Below are positions 24,439 through 38,132 of a stretch of DNA of 64,000 nt, one piece after another. The DNA comes from Escherichia phage vB_EcoM-P3322. Location of the stretch: the sequence record PV191315.1, one strand, 5' to 3'. Both the position numbers and the translations under genes were made by a program. The first letter of the stretch is position 1; each line of letters begins with the position of its first letter. Under the pieces are notes generated by a model, which was given only the letters and a program-made list of their open reading frames with translations, was not told the DNA's origin and searched no databases.

Positions 24439-25041
24439 ATGACTGATAAAATTTCCCTGAAAAAAGGCTCTAGCGAAAAAATTTCCCTGAAGAAAGTTGC
24501 TCCGGCTCTGAAAGAACTGCGCCTGGAATTCTCTTGGAAATCTGATTCTAAACTGGATCTGGATGTAAGTGCACTGGTTTGTCGTCATAATGCCGCTGGC
24601 AATCCTGAAATGTTGTCTGCACGTCATCTGGTTTGCTATGCTAACAAGTTTGATCCTGAACGTTCTACCTTCGCTGGTGACGATGTTCGTGATGGAACTG
24701 GTAGCATGGAGCAGATTGATATTACTCTGGCTAAAATCTCTCCTGATGCACAAGAGATTGCCTTTGTTCTGACCATTGATGATGATACAGGTCTGAAACG
24801 TTTTGGTCATGCTTCTGAAGGTATGCTTAAAATCTTCGACTCCGAGCGCAATGTGGAAATTCTGGATTTTGACTTCCTGGCTCCTGAAGTAGCTGGCAAC
24901 ACAATCTGCCACGTGGCTTCCTTGGTTCGTGAAGATGGGGAATGGAAGCTGAAAGCATATGGTGTAGGTAAAGCTGGTCTGGATATTTGTGATGTGGTGA
25001 TGGCCTTCGGTGGTAAAAAAGAATGGTATGAATGTCCATAA
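24439..25041 (+). CDS. TerD-domain protein
   Basis: N-terminal KISLKKG..EKISLKK, central Ca-binding-type AGDDVRDGTGS, C-terminal EWKLKAYGVGKAGL all fit TerD; strong host-like codon bias. Confidence 0.65.
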   Translation: MTDKISLKKGSSEKISLKKVAPALKELRLEFSWKSDSKLDLDVSALVCRHNAAGNPEMLSARHLVCYANKFDPERSTFAGDDVRDGTGSMEQIDITLAKISPDAQEIAFVLTIDDDTGLKRFGHASEGMLKIFDSERNVEILDFDFLAPEVAGNTICHVASLVREDGEWKLKAYGVGKAGLDICDVVMAFGGKKEWYECP

Positions 25042-28566: not shown

Positions 28567-29511
28567 ATGGGACAAATAATTCTTGACAATCGTAACGGAA
28601 TCAATTATAGTGTCTGCGATTTCCATAGGGTAGTGCTGCCTTACTCAAGGCAGTTCTCTTCACAACCTAAACACAACGTTTTCGTTTTTAACGGGGTGCC
28701 AACAAAAGGTAAAGAGGGCTTTTTAGCCCTTAAAAACCTAGGCTTTAAAATGGTTATGGATTTGGATGACTCTTTAGTTATTCCAAAAGGACACATGTTA
28801 GAAGGTATTTTTGAATCAGGTATTCGTGAACATTTAAAATGGTTTTTAGAGCACAGCGATCTCGTTACAACTACGACACCTGCTTTGCAAGTTGAACTTT
28901 CACAATACAATGATAATGTGCACATAATCCCTAATGGACTTCCTTACGATGAAGGTCAATTTGTGTTGACCCGTGATCGCTACTCCAAAACTCCATTAGT
29001 CTGGGCTGGAAGTGAAACACATAAACAAGACTTGGCTATCTTGCCCGATTTTGGTAAAGATCTTACAATATGTGGTTTTCGTAGGGATTCTGAAGTTTTA
29101 AGTAGTCGTGAATGGTCTGTGATCAGAGAAAATGTAGCACCAACTTGTGTTTATGAAGGTGTAAGACCATATGCCAACTACATGGAATCTTACGATGGTC
29201 ATCAAATCAGTCTTGCGCCATTGATTGATAACGTGTTTAATAATGCAAAAAGCAATCTTAAAATTCTTGAGGCAGGTGCTAAGGGTTTACCTTTGATCTG
29301 TTCTCCTCGTGAGAATTATCATACACAAGAGTTTAAAGATTTGTTATTCTTTGCTGAAACACCTTCCGAGTGGAAAGATATTACGGAATACTTATTAAGT
29401 GCTCCCGATGTTTGCATGGAGAAAGGATTAGCATTAGCTAAGTATGTCAGGACTCATTATCACATTGATGTGTTGAATGAGCGTCGTAGACTTTTATTTG
29501 AGGAGCTATAA
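28567..29511 (+). CDS. glycosyltransferase, GT-B fold, paralog 2
   Basis: 314 aa; NNAKSNLKILEAGAKGLPLICS; collinear similarity to 27609..28559 (CD(Y/F)HR(I/V)V.P, VVWAG/LVWAG). Confidence 0.45.
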   Translation: MGQIILDNRNGINYSVCDFHRVVLPYSRQFSSQPKHNVFVFNGVPTKGKEGFLALKNLGFKMVMDLDDSLVIPKGHMLEGIFESGIREHLKWFLEHSDLVTTTTPALQVELSQYNDNVHIIPNGLPYDEGQFVLTRDRYSKTPLVWAGSETHKQDLAILPDFGKDLTICGFRRDSEVLSSREWSVIRENVAPTCVYEGVRPYANYMESYDGHQISLAPLIDNVFNNAKSNLKILEAGAKGLPLICSPRENYHTQEFKDLLFFAETPSEWKDITEYLLSAPDVCMEKGLALAKYVRTHYHIDVLNERRRLLFEEL

Positions 29512-29789
29512 TGATTAACACTTTTGATTTTGAATACACCACTCGTAACGGGAAAGCTTTAGTCGTGGAGGTGGATTACTATTATGAAGAGCCTAACCCG
29601 CTTTCTCGTGAAAGTGATTGGGATTACCACGGAGGGCTTTTAATTGACGGTATTCGTTTTTATGAAGGCTCTACAGAAGTTTTTGAAAAAGATTTAAATG
29701 TAACTGTAGCAGAAATTGCTTTCCAATTTAGAAAGCATATGGAAGAACTAGAAGCAGAATATATGATGGAGACTAACGAACCATTTTAA
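29511..29789 (+). CDS. hypothetical protein
   Basis: Track ORF 92 aa; TAATG overlap. Confidence 0.5.
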   Translation: MINTFDFEYTTRNGKALVVEVDYYYEEPNPLSRESDWDYHGGLLIDGIRFYEGSTEVFEKDLNVTVAEIAFQFRKHMEELEAEYMMETNEPF

Positions 29790-29801: not shown

Positions 29802-31580
29802 GTGTCGCACATTATAACTAAATATGGATTTGATGTTGATCTTAGCAAGGAAGGACATACAGGTTGTCCGCGCTGCATGAAAAATGGCAAGGATCGCTCT
29901 CGTAATAACCTGATGGTTTATGGATTAGATTCTAATGGAGAGCATAAAGGTGCTAAGTGCTTTGCGTGTGAATACACTATTCCTAGCGTAGAATGGTTAC
30001 GAGAAAATGGTGAAGTTTTAGAAGAAGAGGAGGAGATTGTGGGTTCGGAATTTAATAAACAGATTCATCGTAAAATTGTTCAAGAAACATCAACCAACCC
30101 ACGTGGTTATCGAGGCATTAAAGAAAAAGTTTCATCTTTCTATGGTGTTCGTTATGAATACCGCCAGGAAGGGGATCAGATGGTAGTAGAAAGTTGTTTA
30201 TATCCAACTACTATCGGTAAAGAATTAGTTGGTTTTAAGCGTCGTATTCATCCTAAAGATTTCAGTAAACCTATTGGTCAAGTAGGTAAAGATGTAGATC
30301 TTTTTGGACAAATTCGTTTTGCAGACCGTTCTCATACTGTGGTAATTACAGGTGGTGAACACGATGCTCTGGCAGCTTATCAAATGCTGTCTGAAAACTT
30401 GGACAACAAATATGAACTTCCAGCAGTAGTTAGTGGCACAACTGGTGAAACCAGTATGTATAAACAAGTTCAGGCACAATATCCTTTCTTTGAAAAATTT
30501 AAGAAGATTATTGTTTGCATGGATAATGACAAAGCAGGTAATGAGGCATTTGAAAATATTGTTAAGGTGTTGCCTCGTAACAAAGTCTACCGTATGCAGA
30601 TGGATCTTAAGGATGCCAATCAGTATCTGGAAGAAGGTCGTGCAAAAGATTTCGTAAAAGCTTTTTGGAGTGCTCGTCTATACACCCCAGCAGGTGTTTA
30701 TGCTTCTAATGTCTTGTATGAAGCTGCATTAGAATGCTTGGAATCCAAGATGATTACCTTGCCTCCTTTTATGCGTGTTGCTGCAAATATGCTGGGTGGT
30801 GGTTTAGTAGAGGAAGAGATTACAGTTATCCTGGCGAAGACCAGTATCGGTAAAACTTTGATGGTGAACGAGATCACCAAACATATTATTGTTGCGCACC
30901 CAGAACATACCCTAGGTATTCTGTCCTTGGAAGCAACTTATAAGAAATATTCTCGTAACCTGTTGTCCTCGTTCCTGCATATTCCTCTACACAGGAAAAC
31001 ACCGGAAGAGAAATTTCAAATCTTGGAAGAGAATAAAGAAAAAATCCTAGATTTTTACGAAAGAGAAGATGGATCACCACGTTTTTATGTGTGTGATGAT
31101 CGTGGAGCAGATGTGGAGTCTATCAAAGAAAAAGTTTTGGAGATGATCATCTATTTTGGAGTAACAATTCTTGTTATCGACCCTTATTCTGATTTGCTTT
31201 CTGGTATGGATGTTCAAGCCCAGGAAGAGTTAGCAACATGGTTGAAGCGCATCATGAAAGAGTATGCTATAACTATTATTGTCATCTCACACGTTAAGAA
31301 ATCGGCTAATGGTGGCAATGAACACTTAACAGAGGACGATGCAATGGGTAGTAGTTTCTTGGCTAAAGGTGCTGGTATTACCTTGGCTTTGGAACGAGAT
31401 AAAGCCGCTGAAGACCCTGTAGAACGCAATACGACTCATTGCTTTATCCTAAAAAACCGTGAGTTCTCAGAAACTGGTCCGGCAGGGCAGTTTTACTATG
31501 ACATTAGAACTGCAACTCTGCATGACAAAGAGCAGTATTTCAACAATCCTGCTAATTTGCCTACGGATAGCAACTATTAA
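29802..31580 (+). CDS. bifunctional DNA primase-helicase (T7 gp4-like)
   Basis: N-terminal zinc ribbon CPRCMKNGKD...CFACEY; TOPRIM-like VVITGGEHDALAAYQ and CMDNDKAGNEA; helicase Walker A AKTSIGKT and Walker B-like LVIDPY. Confidence 0.7.
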   Translation: MSHIITKYGFDVDLSKEGHTGCPRCMKNGKDRSRNNLMVYGLDSNGEHKGAKCFACEYTIPSVEWLRENGEVLEEEEEIVGSEFNKQIHRKIVQETSTNPRGYRGIKEKVSSFYGVRYEYRQEGDQMVVESCLYPTTIGKELVGFKRRIHPKDFSKPIGQVGKDVDLFGQIRFADRSHTVVITGGEHDALAAYQMLSENLDNKYELPAVVSGTTGETSMYKQVQAQYPFFEKFKKIIVCMDNDKAGNEAFENIVKVLPRNKVYRMQMDLKDANQYLEEGRAKDFVKAFWSARLYTPAGVYASNVLYEAALECLESKMITLPPFMRVAANMLGGGLVEEEITVILAKTSIGKTLMVNEITKHIIVAHPEHTLGILSLEATYKKYSRNLLSSFLHIPLHRKTPEEKFQILEENKEKILDFYEREDGSPRFYVCDDRGADVESIKEKVLEMIIYFGVTILVIDPYSDLLSGMDVQAQEELATWLKRIMKEYAITIIVISHVKKSANGGNEHLTEDDAMGSSFLAKGAGITLALERDKAAEDPVERNTTHCFILKNREFSETGPAGQFYYDIRTATLHDKEQYFNNPANLPTDSNY

Positions 31581-31672: not shown

Positions 31673-32104
31673 ATGCGTATGACAATCGATCTGAATGCAA
31701 AAGTTAAAGCTGCTGGTGCTCTGGGTGCTGGTGTTATTAAACACAAACAAGCGTTGGCATTTGCCATCCCACATATGATTGTTGAGGATCATCCTGAAGA
31801 GTTTGCTGTAAAAGTTGTTGAGAACAATGTCTCTGTTATTGAACATCTTCCAACTGGACGTTCTTACCGTGTTGTTTCTTCTAAAGGTTTCCGTTTCGAT
31901 GTAAGCCCTTCTTTCACAAAAGGTGCTGGTCGTAGTAAAGTGGGTATTCTTTCTTACAAATATTATATCGATAAAGTTGCAGATGGTGTCGCATTCTGTC
32001 GTGTAAGTGAAGGTAAAGTAGATATCATCTTTAAAAATACCAAAAACATGGTTATTTCTGACGATGGTAAAGTTGACCTCACTATTGAGTTCGCTAACAA
32101 CTAA
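31673..32104 (+). CDS. hypothetical protein, expression-optimised (143 aa)
   Basis: SD AGGAGAAG; heavy CTG/GGT/GCT/CGT codon usage like TerD and SSB genes; strongest promoter in window. Confidence 0.6.
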   Translation: MRMTIDLNAKVKAAGALGAGVIKHKQALAFAIPHMIVEDHPEEFAVKVVENNVSVIEHLPTGRSYRVVSSKGFRFDVSPSFTKGAGRSKVGILSYKYYIDKVADGVAFCRVSEGKVDIIFKNTKNMVISDDGKVDLTIEFANN

Positions 32105-32113
32105 GGAGGACTA

Positions 32114-32908
32114 TTGAGCAAGTTGAATACACTTGATCAATATTACACTAACCCCGCTTATGCGGGGTTCTTATGTGATAAGATCAAAGAAATTTTTGGA
32201 GAGGAAGCTAACTACGTAGAACCATCTGCGGGAGAAGGAGCTTTCTCTTCTTGTTTTAAAAACATAACTTCTTTTGATATTGACCCTAAGTTTGAAGATT
32301 GTATTGAGGCAGATTTTTTAGCTCAATCTGTTGAGTCTGTTGGCAGTGTAACTGCTTTTGTCGGTAATCCTCCGTTTGGAAAAAATGCTAGTCTTGCCAT
32401 TAAGTTCTTTAACCATTGTGCTGAAATGTTGGATAACGAAGGTGGTATTTGTTTTATCTTGCCTCGCACATTTCAAAAAATCTTTTTTGCACACAAACTA
32501 AATCCCCACATGCATCTTCTTTACGAAGAAGAATGTCCAAAAGGATCTTTTATTCTTCATGGGGAACCTTGGGATGTTCCTTGTGTATTCCAGATATGGA
32601 TTAAACGCAACGAGAAGCGTTCTCCCGTTGTTTTAGGAGAGAATAGACTGTTCGTATTAGGTAACAGTAAAGACTACGATATAGCCGTTAGGAGAGCGGG
32701 AGCAAGTGCAGGTAAAGTGTTATCAGAAGAAGATTCTTTATCTGAAGCATCTACCTACTTTTTAAAAGCCTTGACTTCTGATCTTAAAACACGTATCATT
32801 GAGGCTTACCCGTTACTTAAAGCTGAAGCTAGTAAAACTGCGGGAGTAAGAAGTTTAAGTTTAAAAGAACTTCAGTGGGTTCTGGAGAACATTAGAAAGG
32901 AGGAATAG
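32114..32908 (+). CDS. DNA N6-adenine methyltransferase-like protein
   Basis: 264 aa; catalytic-type FVGNPPFGKN; N-terminal YYTNP..AGFLCD consistent with AdoMet-binding region; TTG start after AAGGAGG. Confidence 0.5.
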   Translation: MSKLNTLDQYYTNPAYAGFLCDKIKEIFGEEANYVEPSAGEGAFSSCFKNITSFDIDPKFEDCIEADFLAQSVESVGSVTAFVGNPPFGKNASLAIKFFNHCAEMLDNEGGICFILPRTFQKIFFAHKLNPHMHLLYEEECPKGSFILHGEPWDVPCVFQIWIKRNEKRSPVVLGENRLFVLGNSKDYDIAVRRAGASAGKVLSEEDSLSEASTYFLKALTSDLKTRIIEAYPLLKAEASKTAGVRSLSLKELQWVLENIRKEE

Positions 32909-35505
32909 TGAGTAAGTTTACATGGGATATTGAAGCAAACGGATTGTTGAATAATGACACTATTGATTATTTAGCTAGTCCTTATCGTCTCAAAGACACA
33001 TTTCAAATGCACTGTATTGTCTTAGAGAACCATGAAACAGGAGAAATAGTAGCTTTCCACGATGGCCCTAAATACATCTTTGATGGGCGTCCTTATGAAG
33101 AGTCAGATGGTAAATACACATATGTTCTTAAAGAGTATGTGGCGCAAGATTACACACATTTTCAACTAAAAGATTTCCCAGATTTTATTAATCATGAAGG
33201 TTATTTTAAAGACAAGCCTGAATATCTGGTTGAAATGGCTGTGGCTCACAACGGTATCAACTACGACTGGTTGGCTACAAAACTGTTTTATGGATTAGAT
33301 TACAGTGTTAAATATAATACGTGGGGCAAAAATAAGGTAAAACTTATTGACTCTTTGATTTTGAGTAAAGTGTTAAACCCAGATAGAAAGATTGAGGGCA
33401 AATCAGGACATAGTTTGGCAGCACTTTCTCGAAAAGCAGGTGGTGATGTAAAAATAGATTTCCGTAAAGAGATTCCAGAAGAAGATCGATTTAAGACTTT
33501 TGCTGCGGATATGCTTTATTACTGTATCTATGACAACAAAGCCAATACGAGCGTATATAATTACCTTATGGAAGAATGGGGTGATTATGATAAATGGGAA
33601 GGTCCATTTGAACTTGAACAACGTGTAGCAGACATTATTACACGCCAGGAACACCGTGGGTTTGCTTTTAACATGAAACAAGCAGAAGAGAACCTTGCTT
33701 TTTTGGATGCAGAAATGGAGCGTCTTCGTTTACTCGTTGAGCCTATTTTGCCACCTAAACCAGCAACAAAAGGTTATCTTAAGGCTTTTATTCCACCTAA
33801 GTTGCAAATTAAAAAGAACTTAGAGCCAACTAACCATATGATCAATTTTGCTAAGAAACACGATGGTCATTTGGAAGAGAGGGATGGCGATTGGTGGTTA
33901 GTTATGTTGGGGAAAGAGTGGAAACTGCCAGTTGCAGCAGATGAACCTCTATGTGATCCTAACATCCCTGCAACATTGAACGATACAACCCATATTAAAA
34001 ACTGGCTTGTAGGATTAGGTTGGGTACCGTCTGAATATAAAGATAAAGACTTGACTCTTAAATCTGGCACCAAGATTAAAAAGAGCGAGGAAGAACTTCA
34101 GAAAGGTATTCGAGCTTACGTTGAGCAAACTCTATCTTCTAATTTTTGTCAGGATCGTTGTGATCATCTGGAGTGCACACCGGAAACCCTGGAAAGGAAG
34201 ATTCAAGAGCGTATAGCAAAAGGTAAAGGTCGCGGTCTTAAAGTATTGACTAACCCATGTTTTACCAAAGGTCAGGAAAAAGAAATTTGTCCTAACCTGC
34301 AAGCTTTGGGTGAGAAGTTTCCTTATGCTACACAGATTGTAGAATACTTAACGTATAAGCATCGTAGGAACTCTATTTTAGGTGGCGGTGCTGATTGGGA
34401 AGAAGACGAAGAAGATCAAGAATACGATAAAGGTTTCTTAGCCGCAGTAAGGGCGGATGGGCGTATTCCTACCCCAGCCGCTACATGTGATGCTGCAACC
34501 TCTCGTATGAAGCATAGATCTGTAGCTAATATTCCTCGTGTCACATCTTTGTTTGGATGGGAGATGCGTAACTTGTTTGGTGTAGAAGTTCCTAAATACT
34601 TCCAGATCGGCTACGACTTCGACTCTTTGGAAGCAAAAATTGAATCACACTACTGTTGGCGGTACGAGCCGGAGCCACACGAATATTGTAACGCTCTGTT
34701 GTTAGAGAAACCTAACGATGTTCACACAATGATGGCAAAACGTATCACTGAAACTATTGGACGTAAATTTGAACGTAGTCCTGCTAAATCTGTTAAGTAT
34801 GGTATTACCTATGGTGCACAAGCCGACAAGGTTGCTAAAACAATTGGTAGCGATAAGTTTACAGGTCAATTGGTGTTTGATGCTTTCTGGGAAGCTGCAT
34901 TCCCATTGGCGCGTCTTAAAGAACGTTTAAACGATTTCTGGGTTAAGACTGGTAAACAATATGTTTTGGGTATTGACGGTCGTAAGGTTCCTACTCGTTC
35001 TGCTCACGCGATTCTTAACTCTCTGTTCCAAAGTGGTGGGGTTATCTGTGCTAAACGTGCAATGGTTATTTATGACGACATGATCGAAGAAGAAGGACTA
35101 AGTGTTGACTTCTTTAAAGATGACTGGAAGAATAAAGACTTCGTACAACAAATGATTGCATATCACGATGAAGCCCAGCTTGAAGTTTCTCGTAACCTTG
35201 TAGAATTCAAATGGTTTTCACCTGAATCGTTAGGTTGGAAGAAAGTGGACGATCCTGAAGAACAAAAGAAAATTGATAAAGAATGCCTTGCTAAAGTTGA
35301 AGAATGGAAGCATAATAAGGAAAAAGAGACGGGGCAAATTTGGGCTAACATTCATGAATCTCCCAAAGGTGGATGGTTTACAGCTTATAGTCGAGCAGGA
35401 GAACTTGCTGCTTTAGCTGTTACTAAAGCCGGAGAATTCTACAATCTTAATGTTCAGCTTACTGCTGGATATGATGTGGGTAACTCCTGGGCCAGTTGTC
35501 ACTGA
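32908..35505 (+). CDS. family A DNA polymerase with 3'-5' exonuclease domain
   Basis: Exo I FTWDIEANGL; motif B RSPAKSVKYGITYGAQ; motif C IAYHDEAQLEV; GTG start after GGAGGAA. Confidence 0.8.
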   Translation: MSKFTWDIEANGLLNNDTIDYLASPYRLKDTFQMHCIVLENHETGEIVAFHDGPKYIFDGRPYEESDGKYTYVLKEYVAQDYTHFQLKDFPDFINHEGYFKDKPEYLVEMAVAHNGINYDWLATKLFYGLDYSVKYNTWGKNKVKLIDSLILSKVLNPDRKIEGKSGHSLAALSRKAGGDVKIDFRKEIPEEDRFKTFAADMLYYCIYDNKANTSVYNYLMEEWGDYDKWEGPFELEQRVADIITRQEHRGFAFNMKQAEENLAFLDAEMERLRLLVEPILPPKPATKGYLKAFIPPKLQIKKNLEPTNHMINFAKKHDGHLEERDGDWWLVMLGKEWKLPVAADEPLCDPNIPATLNDTTHIKNWLVGLGWVPSEYKDKDLTLKSGTKIKKSEEELQKGIRAYVEQTLSSNFCQDRCDHLECTPETLERKIQERIAKGKGRGLKVLTNPCFTKGQEKEICPNLQALGEKFPYATQIVEYLTYKHRRNSILGGGADWEEDEEDQEYDKGFLAAVRADGRIPTPAATCDAATSRMKHRSVANIPRVTSLFGWEMRNLFGVEVPKYFQIGYDFDSLEAKIESHYCWRYEPEPHEYCNALLLEKPNDVHTMMAKRITETIGRKFERSPAKSVKYGITYGAQADKVAKTIGSDKFTGQLVFDAFWEAAFPLARLKERLNDFWVKTGKQYVLGIDGRKVPTRSAHAILNSLFQSGGVICAKRAMVIYDDMIEEEGLSVDFFKDDWKNKDFVQQMIAYHDEAQLEVSRNLVEFKWFSPESLGWKKVDDPEEQKKIDKECLAKVEEWKHNKEKETGQIWANIHESPKGGWFTAYSRAGELAALAVTKAGEFYNLNVQLTAGYDVGNSWASCH

Positions 35506-36735: not shown

Positions 36736-36765
36736 TTGACAATATTAAACATTTTATGATAGGAT
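36736..36765 (+). promoter_or_regulatory. possible promoter (TTGACA-N18-TAGGAT)
   Basis: Good -35, mediocre -10; predicted start almost at the ATG of 36774 and no SD, so the downstream gene may be leaderless. Confidence 0.25.
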
Positions 36766-36773
36766 AGCATTCA

Positions 36774-37166
36774 ATGACTGAACGTTCTAAGATAGCTGTT
36801 GAAACTGTTTATGGAAACTATACCAGTTTGACACTAGTTGAGAAAAATGTTGTAGGTCTTGACAACTCTTTTTATTTTCAAATTTTGGTTATTCAAGGTG
36901 GAAACAAGAAGCTAACTGCTCGTGTTGAAACATCTGAAATAATTGAAACCACTGTTACAAACAAAGAATTCATTTCACTGCAAGATACAATCCGAAACGT
37001 TATAGACGAAGAAGGCAAAGCTGCCACAATTAAACTCGGAGGTTTCCCAGTGCAAATAGTTCATTTTCCTAATGGTGAAATTGGAGTTGGAATAGGTAAA
37101 GGTAAATACCTGTTAGAGCAAGATGATATGGAAAGACTCCGCTCTTTCTGTGCAAAATTAATGTAA
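36774..37166 (+). CDS. hypothetical protein
   Basis: Track ORF 130 aa; no obvious SD. Confidence 0.45.
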   Translation: MTERSKIAVETVYGNYTSLTLVEKNVVGLDNSFYFQILVIQGGNKKLTARVETSEIIETTVTNKEFISLQDTIRNVIDEEGKAATIKLGGFPVQIVHFPNGEIGVGIGKGKYLLEQDDMERLRSFCAKLM

Positions 37167-37182
37167 TGTAGAGGAGATAATA

Positions 37183-38070
37183 ATGTCCGTAATTAATACT
37201 GAAACTGATCGTAAAGGCAAAACCGTAACTTATGCAACTGGTATCGTAGACTACGTTAAACTGGATAAATTCGCTGAACCTAAAACTTTTCATTGGGAAG
37301 GAAAAACGATTGTTTCAACTCACCGAGCCTCTCTTGTTCTGAAAGAGAAAGGTGCTAAACCAGATGAGAAAGGTGTTTGGATTTCTCTTGGTGACATTGA
37401 ACTGAAAGAAGGTTATGAAAACCTGCAAGTCAAAGAAGGTGATAATTGGATCACTATTGAAAAAGGTGTAGAAGTAAGTATTGATATTGATCGCGTTGAT
37501 AATAAAGGCGGTAAAACTTACTACAATACTAAAAAATCTCGTATTACAGTATTGTCTACCGATGGTGTTCAGAAGTCTAACAAATCTTCTGGCAATAAAG
37601 GTTCCAACGATGCTGCTCCTAAGCAGTCCTATAAAAAACGTGATACTGTAGGTCTGGAAACTGGTCACGCAGTAAATGGTGCACTGGAACTGATTCGTAA
37701 TGGTGTTAAAGGCGATGCTTTCGATATCGCTGGGGTTGTTCAATCTGCAACTGTCACACTGAAATCTGAAATTGCTGAATCTCGTGGCGTTGATATTAAT
37801 GATTATGATCTTGGGGCATCTGTTGGTCACGCTATTCTCAATGCTTGTAAAGACCATACCATTAAGACTGTCTCTGTAGAAGATCTGATTGATTCTGCTC
37901 GTAAAGTTCTGGCTCTGTCTGATAAAGTTGCTGCTGCCATTCGTGGTTCCGCAGAACAGCCTAAGAAAGAAGAGAAGAAAGAAGTTAAGAAACCTGAACC
38001 ACAACCAGAACCAACTCCAAGTAATCAAGAAGAACCTCCAATGGACTTCGACGATGATATTCCATTCTGA
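37183..38070 (+). CDS. single-stranded DNA-binding protein-like, with E. coli SSB-type C-terminal tail
   Basis: 295 aa; last residues PMDFDDDIPF match the conserved E. coli SSB tip; Pro/Glu/Lys-rich linker before it; host-like optimal codons; SD AGAGGAG. Confidence 0.5.
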   Translation: MSVINTETDRKGKTVTYATGIVDYVKLDKFAEPKTFHWEGKTIVSTHRASLVLKEKGAKPDEKGVWISLGDIELKEGYENLQVKEGDNWITIEKGVEVSIDIDRVDNKGGKTYYNTKKSRITVLSTDGVQKSNKSSGNKGSNDAAPKQSYKKRDTVGLETGHAVNGALELIRNGVKGDAFDIAGVVQSATVTLKSEIAESRGVDINDYDLGASVGHAILNACKDHTIKTVSVEDLIDSARKVLALSDKVAAAIRGSAEQPKKEEKKEVKKPEPQPEPTPSNQEEPPMDFDDDIPF

Positions 38071-38102: not shown

Positions 38103-38132
38103 AAAAGGGAACCTTTGCGGGTTCCCTTTTTT
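38103..38132. terminator. bidirectional rho-independent terminator between convergent early/middle and tail modules
   Basis: GGGAACC-loop-GGTTCCC hairpin flanked by AAAA upstream and TTTTTT downstream, between plus-strand stop (38070) and minus-strand stop (38134). Confidence 0.7.

Follow-up and report, generated by a model that had tools for sequence, protein, structure and literature searches.

A probable non-canonical single-stranded DNA-binding protein with a host-identical C-terminal tip in an Escherichia phage

The gene at positions 37183..38070 (+ strand) of a 64,000-nucleotide stretch of Escherichia phage vB_EcoM-P3322 (PV191315.1; the window) probably encodes a phage SSB (single-stranded DNA-binding protein) of a non-canonical family, whose host-identical C-terminal tip would recruit or compete for host SSB partners and possibly dock the phage replisome. 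The first-pass annotation had called the product SSB-like, an interpretation that is supported at the level of prediction. We favor this reading because the tip is identical to that of the host and conserved across the family, the fold is predicted to be OB-like and the linker disordered; because the gene is the only SSB candidate, lies in a replication module and has strong expression signals; and because its homolog Bas52_0087 triggers the DRT10 defense, which is tied to ExoI/SbcB dosage. Three observations were counted against it: the barrel has no sequence or profile homology to any SSB family, Bas52_0087 alone produces no phenotype, and near-identical proteins of sister phages carry a capped tip.

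If the protein is the replicative SSB of rV5/phAPEC8-like phages, these phages carry an SSB family without a Pfam model or a solved structure, one in which a non-canonical OB barrel would be joined to a four-helix domain unique to it, in proteins that most genomes label 'hypothetical'. The host-identical tip would be a handle on the genome-maintenance enzymes that large lytic coliphages depend on or neutralize. The family has already been tied to activation of a reverse-transcriptase defense, DRT10, through ExoI, and the phages are in wide use in therapy and biocontrol collections, so correct annotation and knowledge of an immune trigger are of practical value. Since the SSB idea is already in print for a relative, what is added here is modest; the finding would be of greater interest if hijacking of host proteins, a decoy role or a function of the four-helix pole were demonstrated.

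The gene, its signals and its neighborhood

The reading frame runs from an ATG at 37183 to a TGA at 38068-38070 and encodes 295 aa (32.2 kDa, pI 5.7), so the sequence bears out the placement given in the first-pass annotation. A Shine-Dalgarno sequence, GAGGAG, is read 6 nt before the ATG (37171..37176, + strand); since M1 is also invariant among homologs, the start codon is well supported. A sigma-70-like promoter, TTGACA-18-TAGGAT with a TG (36736..36765, + strand), agrees with the consensus at 10/12 positions and precedes an upstream 130-aa ORF (36774-37166). The SSB-like gene may be transcribed from it as part of a two-gene unit, although the site is weak evidence because promoter-like sites in the region are not above shuffled expectation. 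Downstream, a bidirectional hairpin terminator (38103..38130; 11-bp stem, T runs on both sides) stands between the SSB-like gene and a convergent tail-fiber gene and is common to the two.

Host-like optimal codons, and hence abundance, had also been proposed for this gene. In relative terms the proposal stands: with Sharp-Li weights, the codon adaptation index (CAI) is 0.489, third among 59 window ORFs with a median of 0.26, and there is a strong preference for Leu CTG, Gly GGT, Arg CGT, Ser TCT and Thr ACT. It does not extend to the Pro, Asp, Asn and Ile codons, which are not host-optimal. Together, the strong ribosome-binding site and biased codons would allow large amounts of the protein to be made. 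The two other highest-CAI ORFs in the window lie at 31673-32104 (+ strand; CAI 0.50), between the primase/helicase and methyltransferase genes, and at 24439-25041 (+ strand; CAI 0.53). They match PHROGs 9938 and 5698, for which no function is assigned, and the former may be another abundant replication accessory. An antisense ORF of 237 aa with a TTG start (37315-38028, - strand) lies inside the SSB-like gene; homologs and annotation lend it no support, and it is most likely spurious and merely reflects how the sense strand is composed.

The SSB-like gene is the last of a + strand, T7-like replication module. The module includes a gp4-like primase/helicase (29802-31580, + strand), a T7-like Pol A ending in His (32908-35505, + strand), a methyltransferase, small ORFs, a nucleotidyltransferase-like gene and, directly upstream of the SSB-like gene, the 130-aa ORF (36774-37166, + strand; phrog_16560, unknown function), which is probably co-transcribed with it. 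An ORF of ~120 aa occupies the same upstream position in rV5, Bas52 and PVP-SE1, with no detectable similarity to the 130-aa ORF of the window. The idea of the upstream ORF as a conserved partner was dropped, since the window ORF lacks similarity to its rV5 and PVP-SE1 counterparts. In the complete relative SF1-1, annotated by PHROG HMMs and structure alignment, the SSB call falls on this gene only, and tblastn of the window with E. coli SSB, T4 gp32 and T7 gp2.5 found the tail alone. The window primase/helicase has no SSB-type tail. Just upstream of the primase/helicase gene, a 92-aa ORF (29511-29789, + strand) has an acidic end, ...YMMETNEPF, that is faintly similar to the SSB C-terminus (SSB-Ct).

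Predicted domains and the protein family

The full-length protein was modeled by AlphaFold2 with a 55-sequence alignment (mean pLDDT 82.8), a check that the first-pass annotation had proposed for an OB fold. Residues 1-128 (37183..37566, + strand) are modeled confidently as an OB-like beta-barrel (pLDDT about 90), with modest scores at the level of fold. Its nearest structural neighbors are the OB folds of SSB, RPA, PriB and Stn1, and a Foldseek search against the PDB returned nothing below E 0.01. The barrel carries conserved aromatics (H47, W66, W89, Y114) and conserved basics (K34, K41, K84, K111). It is followed by a predicted disordered linker rich in G, S, N and K (residues 129-150, 37567..37632, + strand; pLDDT <50 for 131-148), a four-helix bundle (residues 151-257, 37633..37953, + strand; pLDDT about 95) and a second, K/E/P-rich linker, EQPKKEEKKEVKKPEPQPEPTPSNQEE (residues 258-284, 37954..38034, + strand), whose disorder is predicted from its composition and a pLDDT <50 for 267-282. 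In the model the barrel proper spans residues 4-125, the helical bundle 156-253 and the second disordered segment 258-285. The protein was correctly noted to be larger than a host SSB (295 aa, as against 178 aa in E. coli SSB); its greater length is accounted for by the extra four-helix domain seen in the predicted model, a domain absent from the first-pass annotation.

The four-helix domain is the best-conserved part of the protein in the family alignment and, modeled alone, reaches a pLDDT of 93.9 and a pTM of 0.85. Its two repeated motifs, D154-x2-G-x-ETGHAVNGA and DYDLGASVGHAILNA (D-Y-D-L-G-A-S-V-G-H-A-I-L-N-A), mark the starts of helices 1 and 3. In an up-down-up-down bundle these two starts and the end of helix 4 are expected, by topology, at the same pole. 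Among known structures the domain matches generic bundles only (a designed repeat protein, DdrC and sigma-factor domains), and in a viral structure library it matches only members of its own family. Its profile, searched against 1.84 billion representative proteins, retrieved 181 clusters only; in nearly all of them the domain follows an N-terminal part of ~130 aa (or ~230 aa) and precedes a tail of ~30-40 aa.

The window phage is a Phapecoctavirus (phAPEC8-like, Stephanstirmvirinae, ~150-kb myoviruses). By tblastn against phage genomes, the identical 295-aa protein is found in more than 30 Phapecoctavirus GenBank records, homologs with 60-80% identity in Justusliebigvirus (phi92-like) and Klebsiella relatives, and partial matches of 30-40% in rV5, PVP-SE1, phiTE, CR8 and GAP31-type phages. 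The identical proteins are mostly labeled 'hypothetical protein', and a minority 'single-stranded DNA-binding protein' or 'SSB'. A protein 99.7-100% identical also occurs in records named for Campylobacter phages (MG065650, MG065645 and others; 'Campylobacter phage B15, A145...') and for an Acinetobacter phage (OP562383; 'Acinetobacter phage vB_AbaM_ABPW7'). Their genomes are of phAPEC8/rV5 type; mislabeled hosts or contaminated preparations are the probable explanation.

Sequence searches link the protein to known SSBs through its end. The window protein matches phrog_4477 ('unknown function') with E 2.7e-97 and two SSB PHROGs over its last ~45 residues only, and tblastn and hmmsearch links to canonical SSB cover the last ~27 residues. 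A Pfam scan gave nothing even at E <= 1 (sub-cut-off noise from Ribosomal_60s and KAsynt_C_assoc), and none of 137 homologs among 5.8 billion proteins searched has a Pfam domain. The family HMM against PDB sequences gave tail-only matches, in which the myosin entries are constructs with an SSB-Ct tag, and hhalign of the N-terminal domain profile against a small canonical SSB alignment gave a probability of 0.2%. Thus, only the tail is SSB by sequence.

Compared with E. coli SSB and the canonical phage and plasmid SSBs (PF00436, for example HK75 gp31), the window protein has in common an N-terminal OB-type barrel, as predicted here, a disordered linker, and the DDDIPF tip with a free Phe. It differs in that its barrel shows no sequence or profile homology to the canonical family, a conserved four-helix domain is added, and the linker is K/E/P-rich rather than G/Q/P-rich. 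Its oligomerization probably departs from the OB-OB tetramer of E. coli SSB. Like T7 gp2.5, it would be a phage non-canonical OB protein; it has an acidic Phe-ending tail and is encoded together with a T7-like Pol A and a gp4-like primase-helicase, but it has no sequence or structural similarity to gp2.5. Similarity to T4 gp32, including the zinc-binding core, was likewise not found, with no tblastn match at the gene and no Pfam match.

Candidate roles of the tip and the helical domain

The first-pass annotation had drawn attention to a tail identical to that of E. coli SSB, and the identity proves to be two residues longer than quoted. The protein ends ...PSNQEEPPMDFDDDIPF (over a longer stretch, ...PTPSNQEEPPMDFDDDIPF), and its last 12 residues, EPPMDFDDDIPF, equal the end of E. 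coli SSB, for which the C-terminus in PDB 1eqq (...APSNEPPMDFDDDIPF) served as reference. The tip PPMDFDDDIPF is encoded at 38035..38067 (+ strand) and completes the 12 residues with E284; the TGA directly after F295 leaves a free C-terminal Phe. P294 and F295 are invariant in the family alignment, and an acidic ...PF tip is present in 120/120 of the closest homologs, which argues that the tip is not due to chance. It is terminal in 103 of these, with exact DDDIPF in 61, and extended by 15-17 aa in the other 17. In more distant representatives (50% clustering) a PF end is found in 93/138, and others end in ...LPW or ...IPFN/S or are truncated. Conservation in both sets indicates that the tip is an ancestral trait of the family. 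One subgroup of distant members (P0165, P0175, P0185, P0194, P0203, P0209, P0211, P0223) ends in ...DDLPW or ...PW instead of ...PF, and others add one residue after the tip (...IPFN, ...IPFS); these may be host-specific variants of a docking tip.

The host likeness of the peptide 'PSN..EPPMDFDDDIPF', over about 17 residues, could also be a coincidence, or reflect the recent capture of a host ssb fragment that became joined to an ORF of other origin. However, similarity to E. coli ssb genes at the DNA level spans only the ~40-50 nt that code for the tip (78% identity for chromosomal ssb; 92% for a plasmid ssb, over 39 nt), and a family of at least 181 clusters has the tip as an ancestral trait. 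A recent acquisition from host ssb is refuted on these grounds, and we give capture or chance practically no credence.

In the host, the partners of SSB-Ct include ExoI/SbcB, RecQ, PriA, the chi subunit, RecO, RecJ and RecG, among others, and they bind the carboxylate of the terminal Phe. In the mechanism we propose, the OB-like barrel would bind ssDNA at the phage fork and at recombination intermediates through its conserved aromatics and basics, as its predicted fold and conservation suggest. The four-helix bundle may provide oligomerization, cooperativity or a partner surface. Its functional face would be one pole, formed by D154, G161-H162, K194, G211-H216 and the end of helix 4, which we propose because of conservation, the bundle topology and the positions of escape mutations in Bas52_0087 (see below). 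The K/E/P linker, flexible by prediction, would present the tip, so that the protein on phage ssDNA would recruit or compete for host proteins that dock on SSB-Ct; the T7-like polymerase or the primase-helicase of the phage itself may be a docking partner as well.

A link between this family and host ssDNA processing was reported in an April 2026 preprint on mutants of phage Bas52 (RudolfGeigy, Vequintavirus) that escape the DRT10 (UG17) reverse-transcriptase defense (bioRxiv 10.64898/2026.04.29.721553). Both escape mutations, D252V and Y351C, fall in Bas52_0087, which the authors called 'SSB-like' from Phold and AlphaFold2 analyses, describing a pair of OB folds, a C-terminus that is disordered and the tip FDDDIPF. 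Bas52_0087 is needed during infection to trigger DRT10 and has no phenotype when expressed alone; the DRT10 threshold is set by the dosage of SbcB (ExoI), and the authors suggest that Bas52_0087 competes with or displaces SbcB, perturbing SbcB-dependent ssDNA processing (bioRxiv 10.64898/2026.04.29.721553). Stephanstirmvirinae are also restricted by DRT10 in the BASEL panel, an indirect hint that the window protein may be a trigger too.

Bas52_0087 is the gene retrieved by our search for homologs, and by BLASTP it matches the window protein in the OB part (35% identity, E 8e-13) and in the helical domain and tail (33%, E 9e-16). With the phrog_4477 match and the D-x2-G-x-ETGHA and GASVGHA motifs, this places the window protein in the rV5/Bas52_0087-type family, in which rV5 gp209 and PVP-SE1 gp38 belong to the same group as Bas52_0087. 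The order of OB domain, helical domain, disordered acidic tail and DDDIPF tip is the same in both proteins. Bas52_0087 differs in its length of 408 aa, in having another beta (OB-like) domain, placed after OB1 and ahead of the helical domain, and in its tip, ...QYSFDDDIPF, as against a tip that is host-identical over 12 residues. In relatives of 370-425 aa, an extra beta domain of ~70 aa stands at the position of linker 129-150 (alignment columns about 215-290); it is absent from the window protein and from 74/120 of the closest homologs (<330 aa), so the window protein is a short-form member of the family. It is thus a short-form Stephanstirmvirinae representative of a kind of protein already described for a relative. 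Both escape positions lie in the helical domain common to the two proteins: D252 maps to the nearly invariant D154, and Y351 to A250 at the end of helix 4. With the up-down-up-down topology, the conserved motifs and both escape positions would be expected to cluster on one face of the bundle. These observations raise the tentative, and in our judgment doubtful, possibility that the protein goes beyond a replication accessory role: that, coating ssDNA, it captures or displaces ExoI/SbcB and other SSB-docking host enzymes through its perfect copy of the host tip and so reshapes ssDNA metabolism in the host, that DRT10-type defenses evolved to sense this disturbance, and that the conserved pole (D154, H162, G211-H216 and the end of helix 4) is the oligomerization or effector surface needed for both hijacking and sensing.

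The tip could instead be the main business of the protein. A high-copy host tip might act as a decoy or hub that titrates or redirects partners such as ExoI/SbcB, RecQ and RecJ so that they leave host SSB or phage DNA, with DNA binding secondary or absent. The disturbance of SbcB-dependent ssDNA processing proposed for the homolog (bioRxiv 10.64898/2026.04.29.721553) would fit such a role, as would the high predicted expression, a 12-residue host match that exceeds the 6-8 residues needed for docking, and an OB similarity confined to the level of fold. Nevertheless, a conserved OB-like barrel with conserved aromatics and basics would be needless in a pure decoy, and neither the SF1-1 annotation nor tblastn of the window found another SSB for the phage's T7-like replisome. 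The homolog is also not toxic when overexpressed alone, although a protein that titrates SSB partners efficiently would be expected to be, and near-identical sister phages carry alleles in which the tip is capped. We consider the decoy reading distinctly unlikely. A transcription factor like the N4 SSB, with the helical domain activating host RNA polymerase for late transcription, is very improbable. The gene does lie where the replication module gives way to the convergent late (tail-fiber) genes; yet those late genes are on the opposite strand and behind a terminator, Pfam and PHROG searches revealed no sequence relation to sigma or N4 proteins, and the matches of the helical domain are to generic bundles, among which a designed repeat protein scores higher.

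In T7, the acidic Phe-ending tails of gp2.5 and gp4 bind the polymerase gp5. By analogy with gp2.5, the tip might serve the phage's Pol A and/or its gp4-like primase-helicase, host identity being a by-product of a widespread tail module. Both of these proteins are encoded upstream of the SSB-like gene, in Klebsiella phage KpS8 a DDDTPF tip module is present on the primase/helicase itself, and the SSB of phage HK620 recruits the phage protein Sak4 through its last six residues (PMC5928155). However, the 12 host-identical residues and the exact DDDIPF in 61/103 terminal tips of the family point to host-type pockets, and the primase/helicase in the window ends without such a tail. We judge this alternative rather unlikely; it is compatible with the SSB reading, and the two are not mutually exclusive. 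The HK620 SSB is comparable in being a phage SSB in which the final six residues work as a docking peptide, but it is distantly homologous to bacterial SSB, and its tip, NDYPPF, has diverged and recruits an annealase of the phage (PMC5928155); the barrel of the window protein is unrelated, and its tip is exactly that of the host. As leads for this protein, the papers on DARNA and HK620 were set aside because they deal with other SSB families.

An extension after the tip in relatives

In sister Phapecoctavirus phages a 99-100% identical protein continues for 15 aa after the terminal Phe, an extension that the window gene lacks. Free-tip and extended-tip alleles thus both occur within Phapecoctavirus, the capped version carrying +APIGLQYGRNFLHCF. 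The extension would bury the free Phe carboxylate that host partners bind, and its presence in near-identical proteins means that a free host-type tip may not be essential. The extension has the consensus [AS]-P-[IVL]-G-L-Q-Y-x-[RK]-[NH]-x-[IL]-[HY]-x-[ILF], with a shorter form AP[IV]GLQY.R[NH].[IL]H.., and by tblastn at least 80% of the motif is present in 213 phage records. The motif was not found in the literature searched.

The extension is also found on proteins beyond Phapecoctavirus. Besides a sister Phapecoctavirus contig (L002, 4886-4933), carriers of the rV5 type are rV5 gp209 (L006, 4225-4272) and PVP-SE1 gp38 (L007, 3534-3581), and it follows the canonical SSBs of the unrelated phages HK75 (L008, 1225-1272) and Vibrio V039C (L009, 1025-1072). 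In Klebsiella phage KpS8 (Mydovirus), the gp4-like primase/helicase ends ...GPDDDTPF-APIGLQYAKHAIYVI (L011, 2501-2566; NC_048873, 7375-9438), so the tip-plus-extension module also occurs on a different replication protein. This arrangement recalls T7, where gp2.5 and gp4 have polymerase-docking tails in common. Substitutions in the first seven extension codons are mostly synonymous in the SSB frame, which suggests that the extension peptide itself is selected.

In some genomes the extension contains the start of a gene for an HNH/EndoVII-type endonuclease (phrog_2340, E 9e-49; L002, 4905-5399; L006, 4244-4867, rV5 gp208), and in others that gene is absent. The extension was considered as a by-product of read-in from a homing endonuclease, an explanation weakened by HK75, Vibrio V039C and KpS8, which carry the APIGLQY extension without an overlapping endonuclease start, and by the mostly synonymous substitutions. 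Where the endonuclease gene is present, the sequence departs from that of the window at a point exactly inside the final (Phe) codon, and the arrangement has the look of a homing-endonuclease cassette that accompanies the tip-coding DNA of the SSB.
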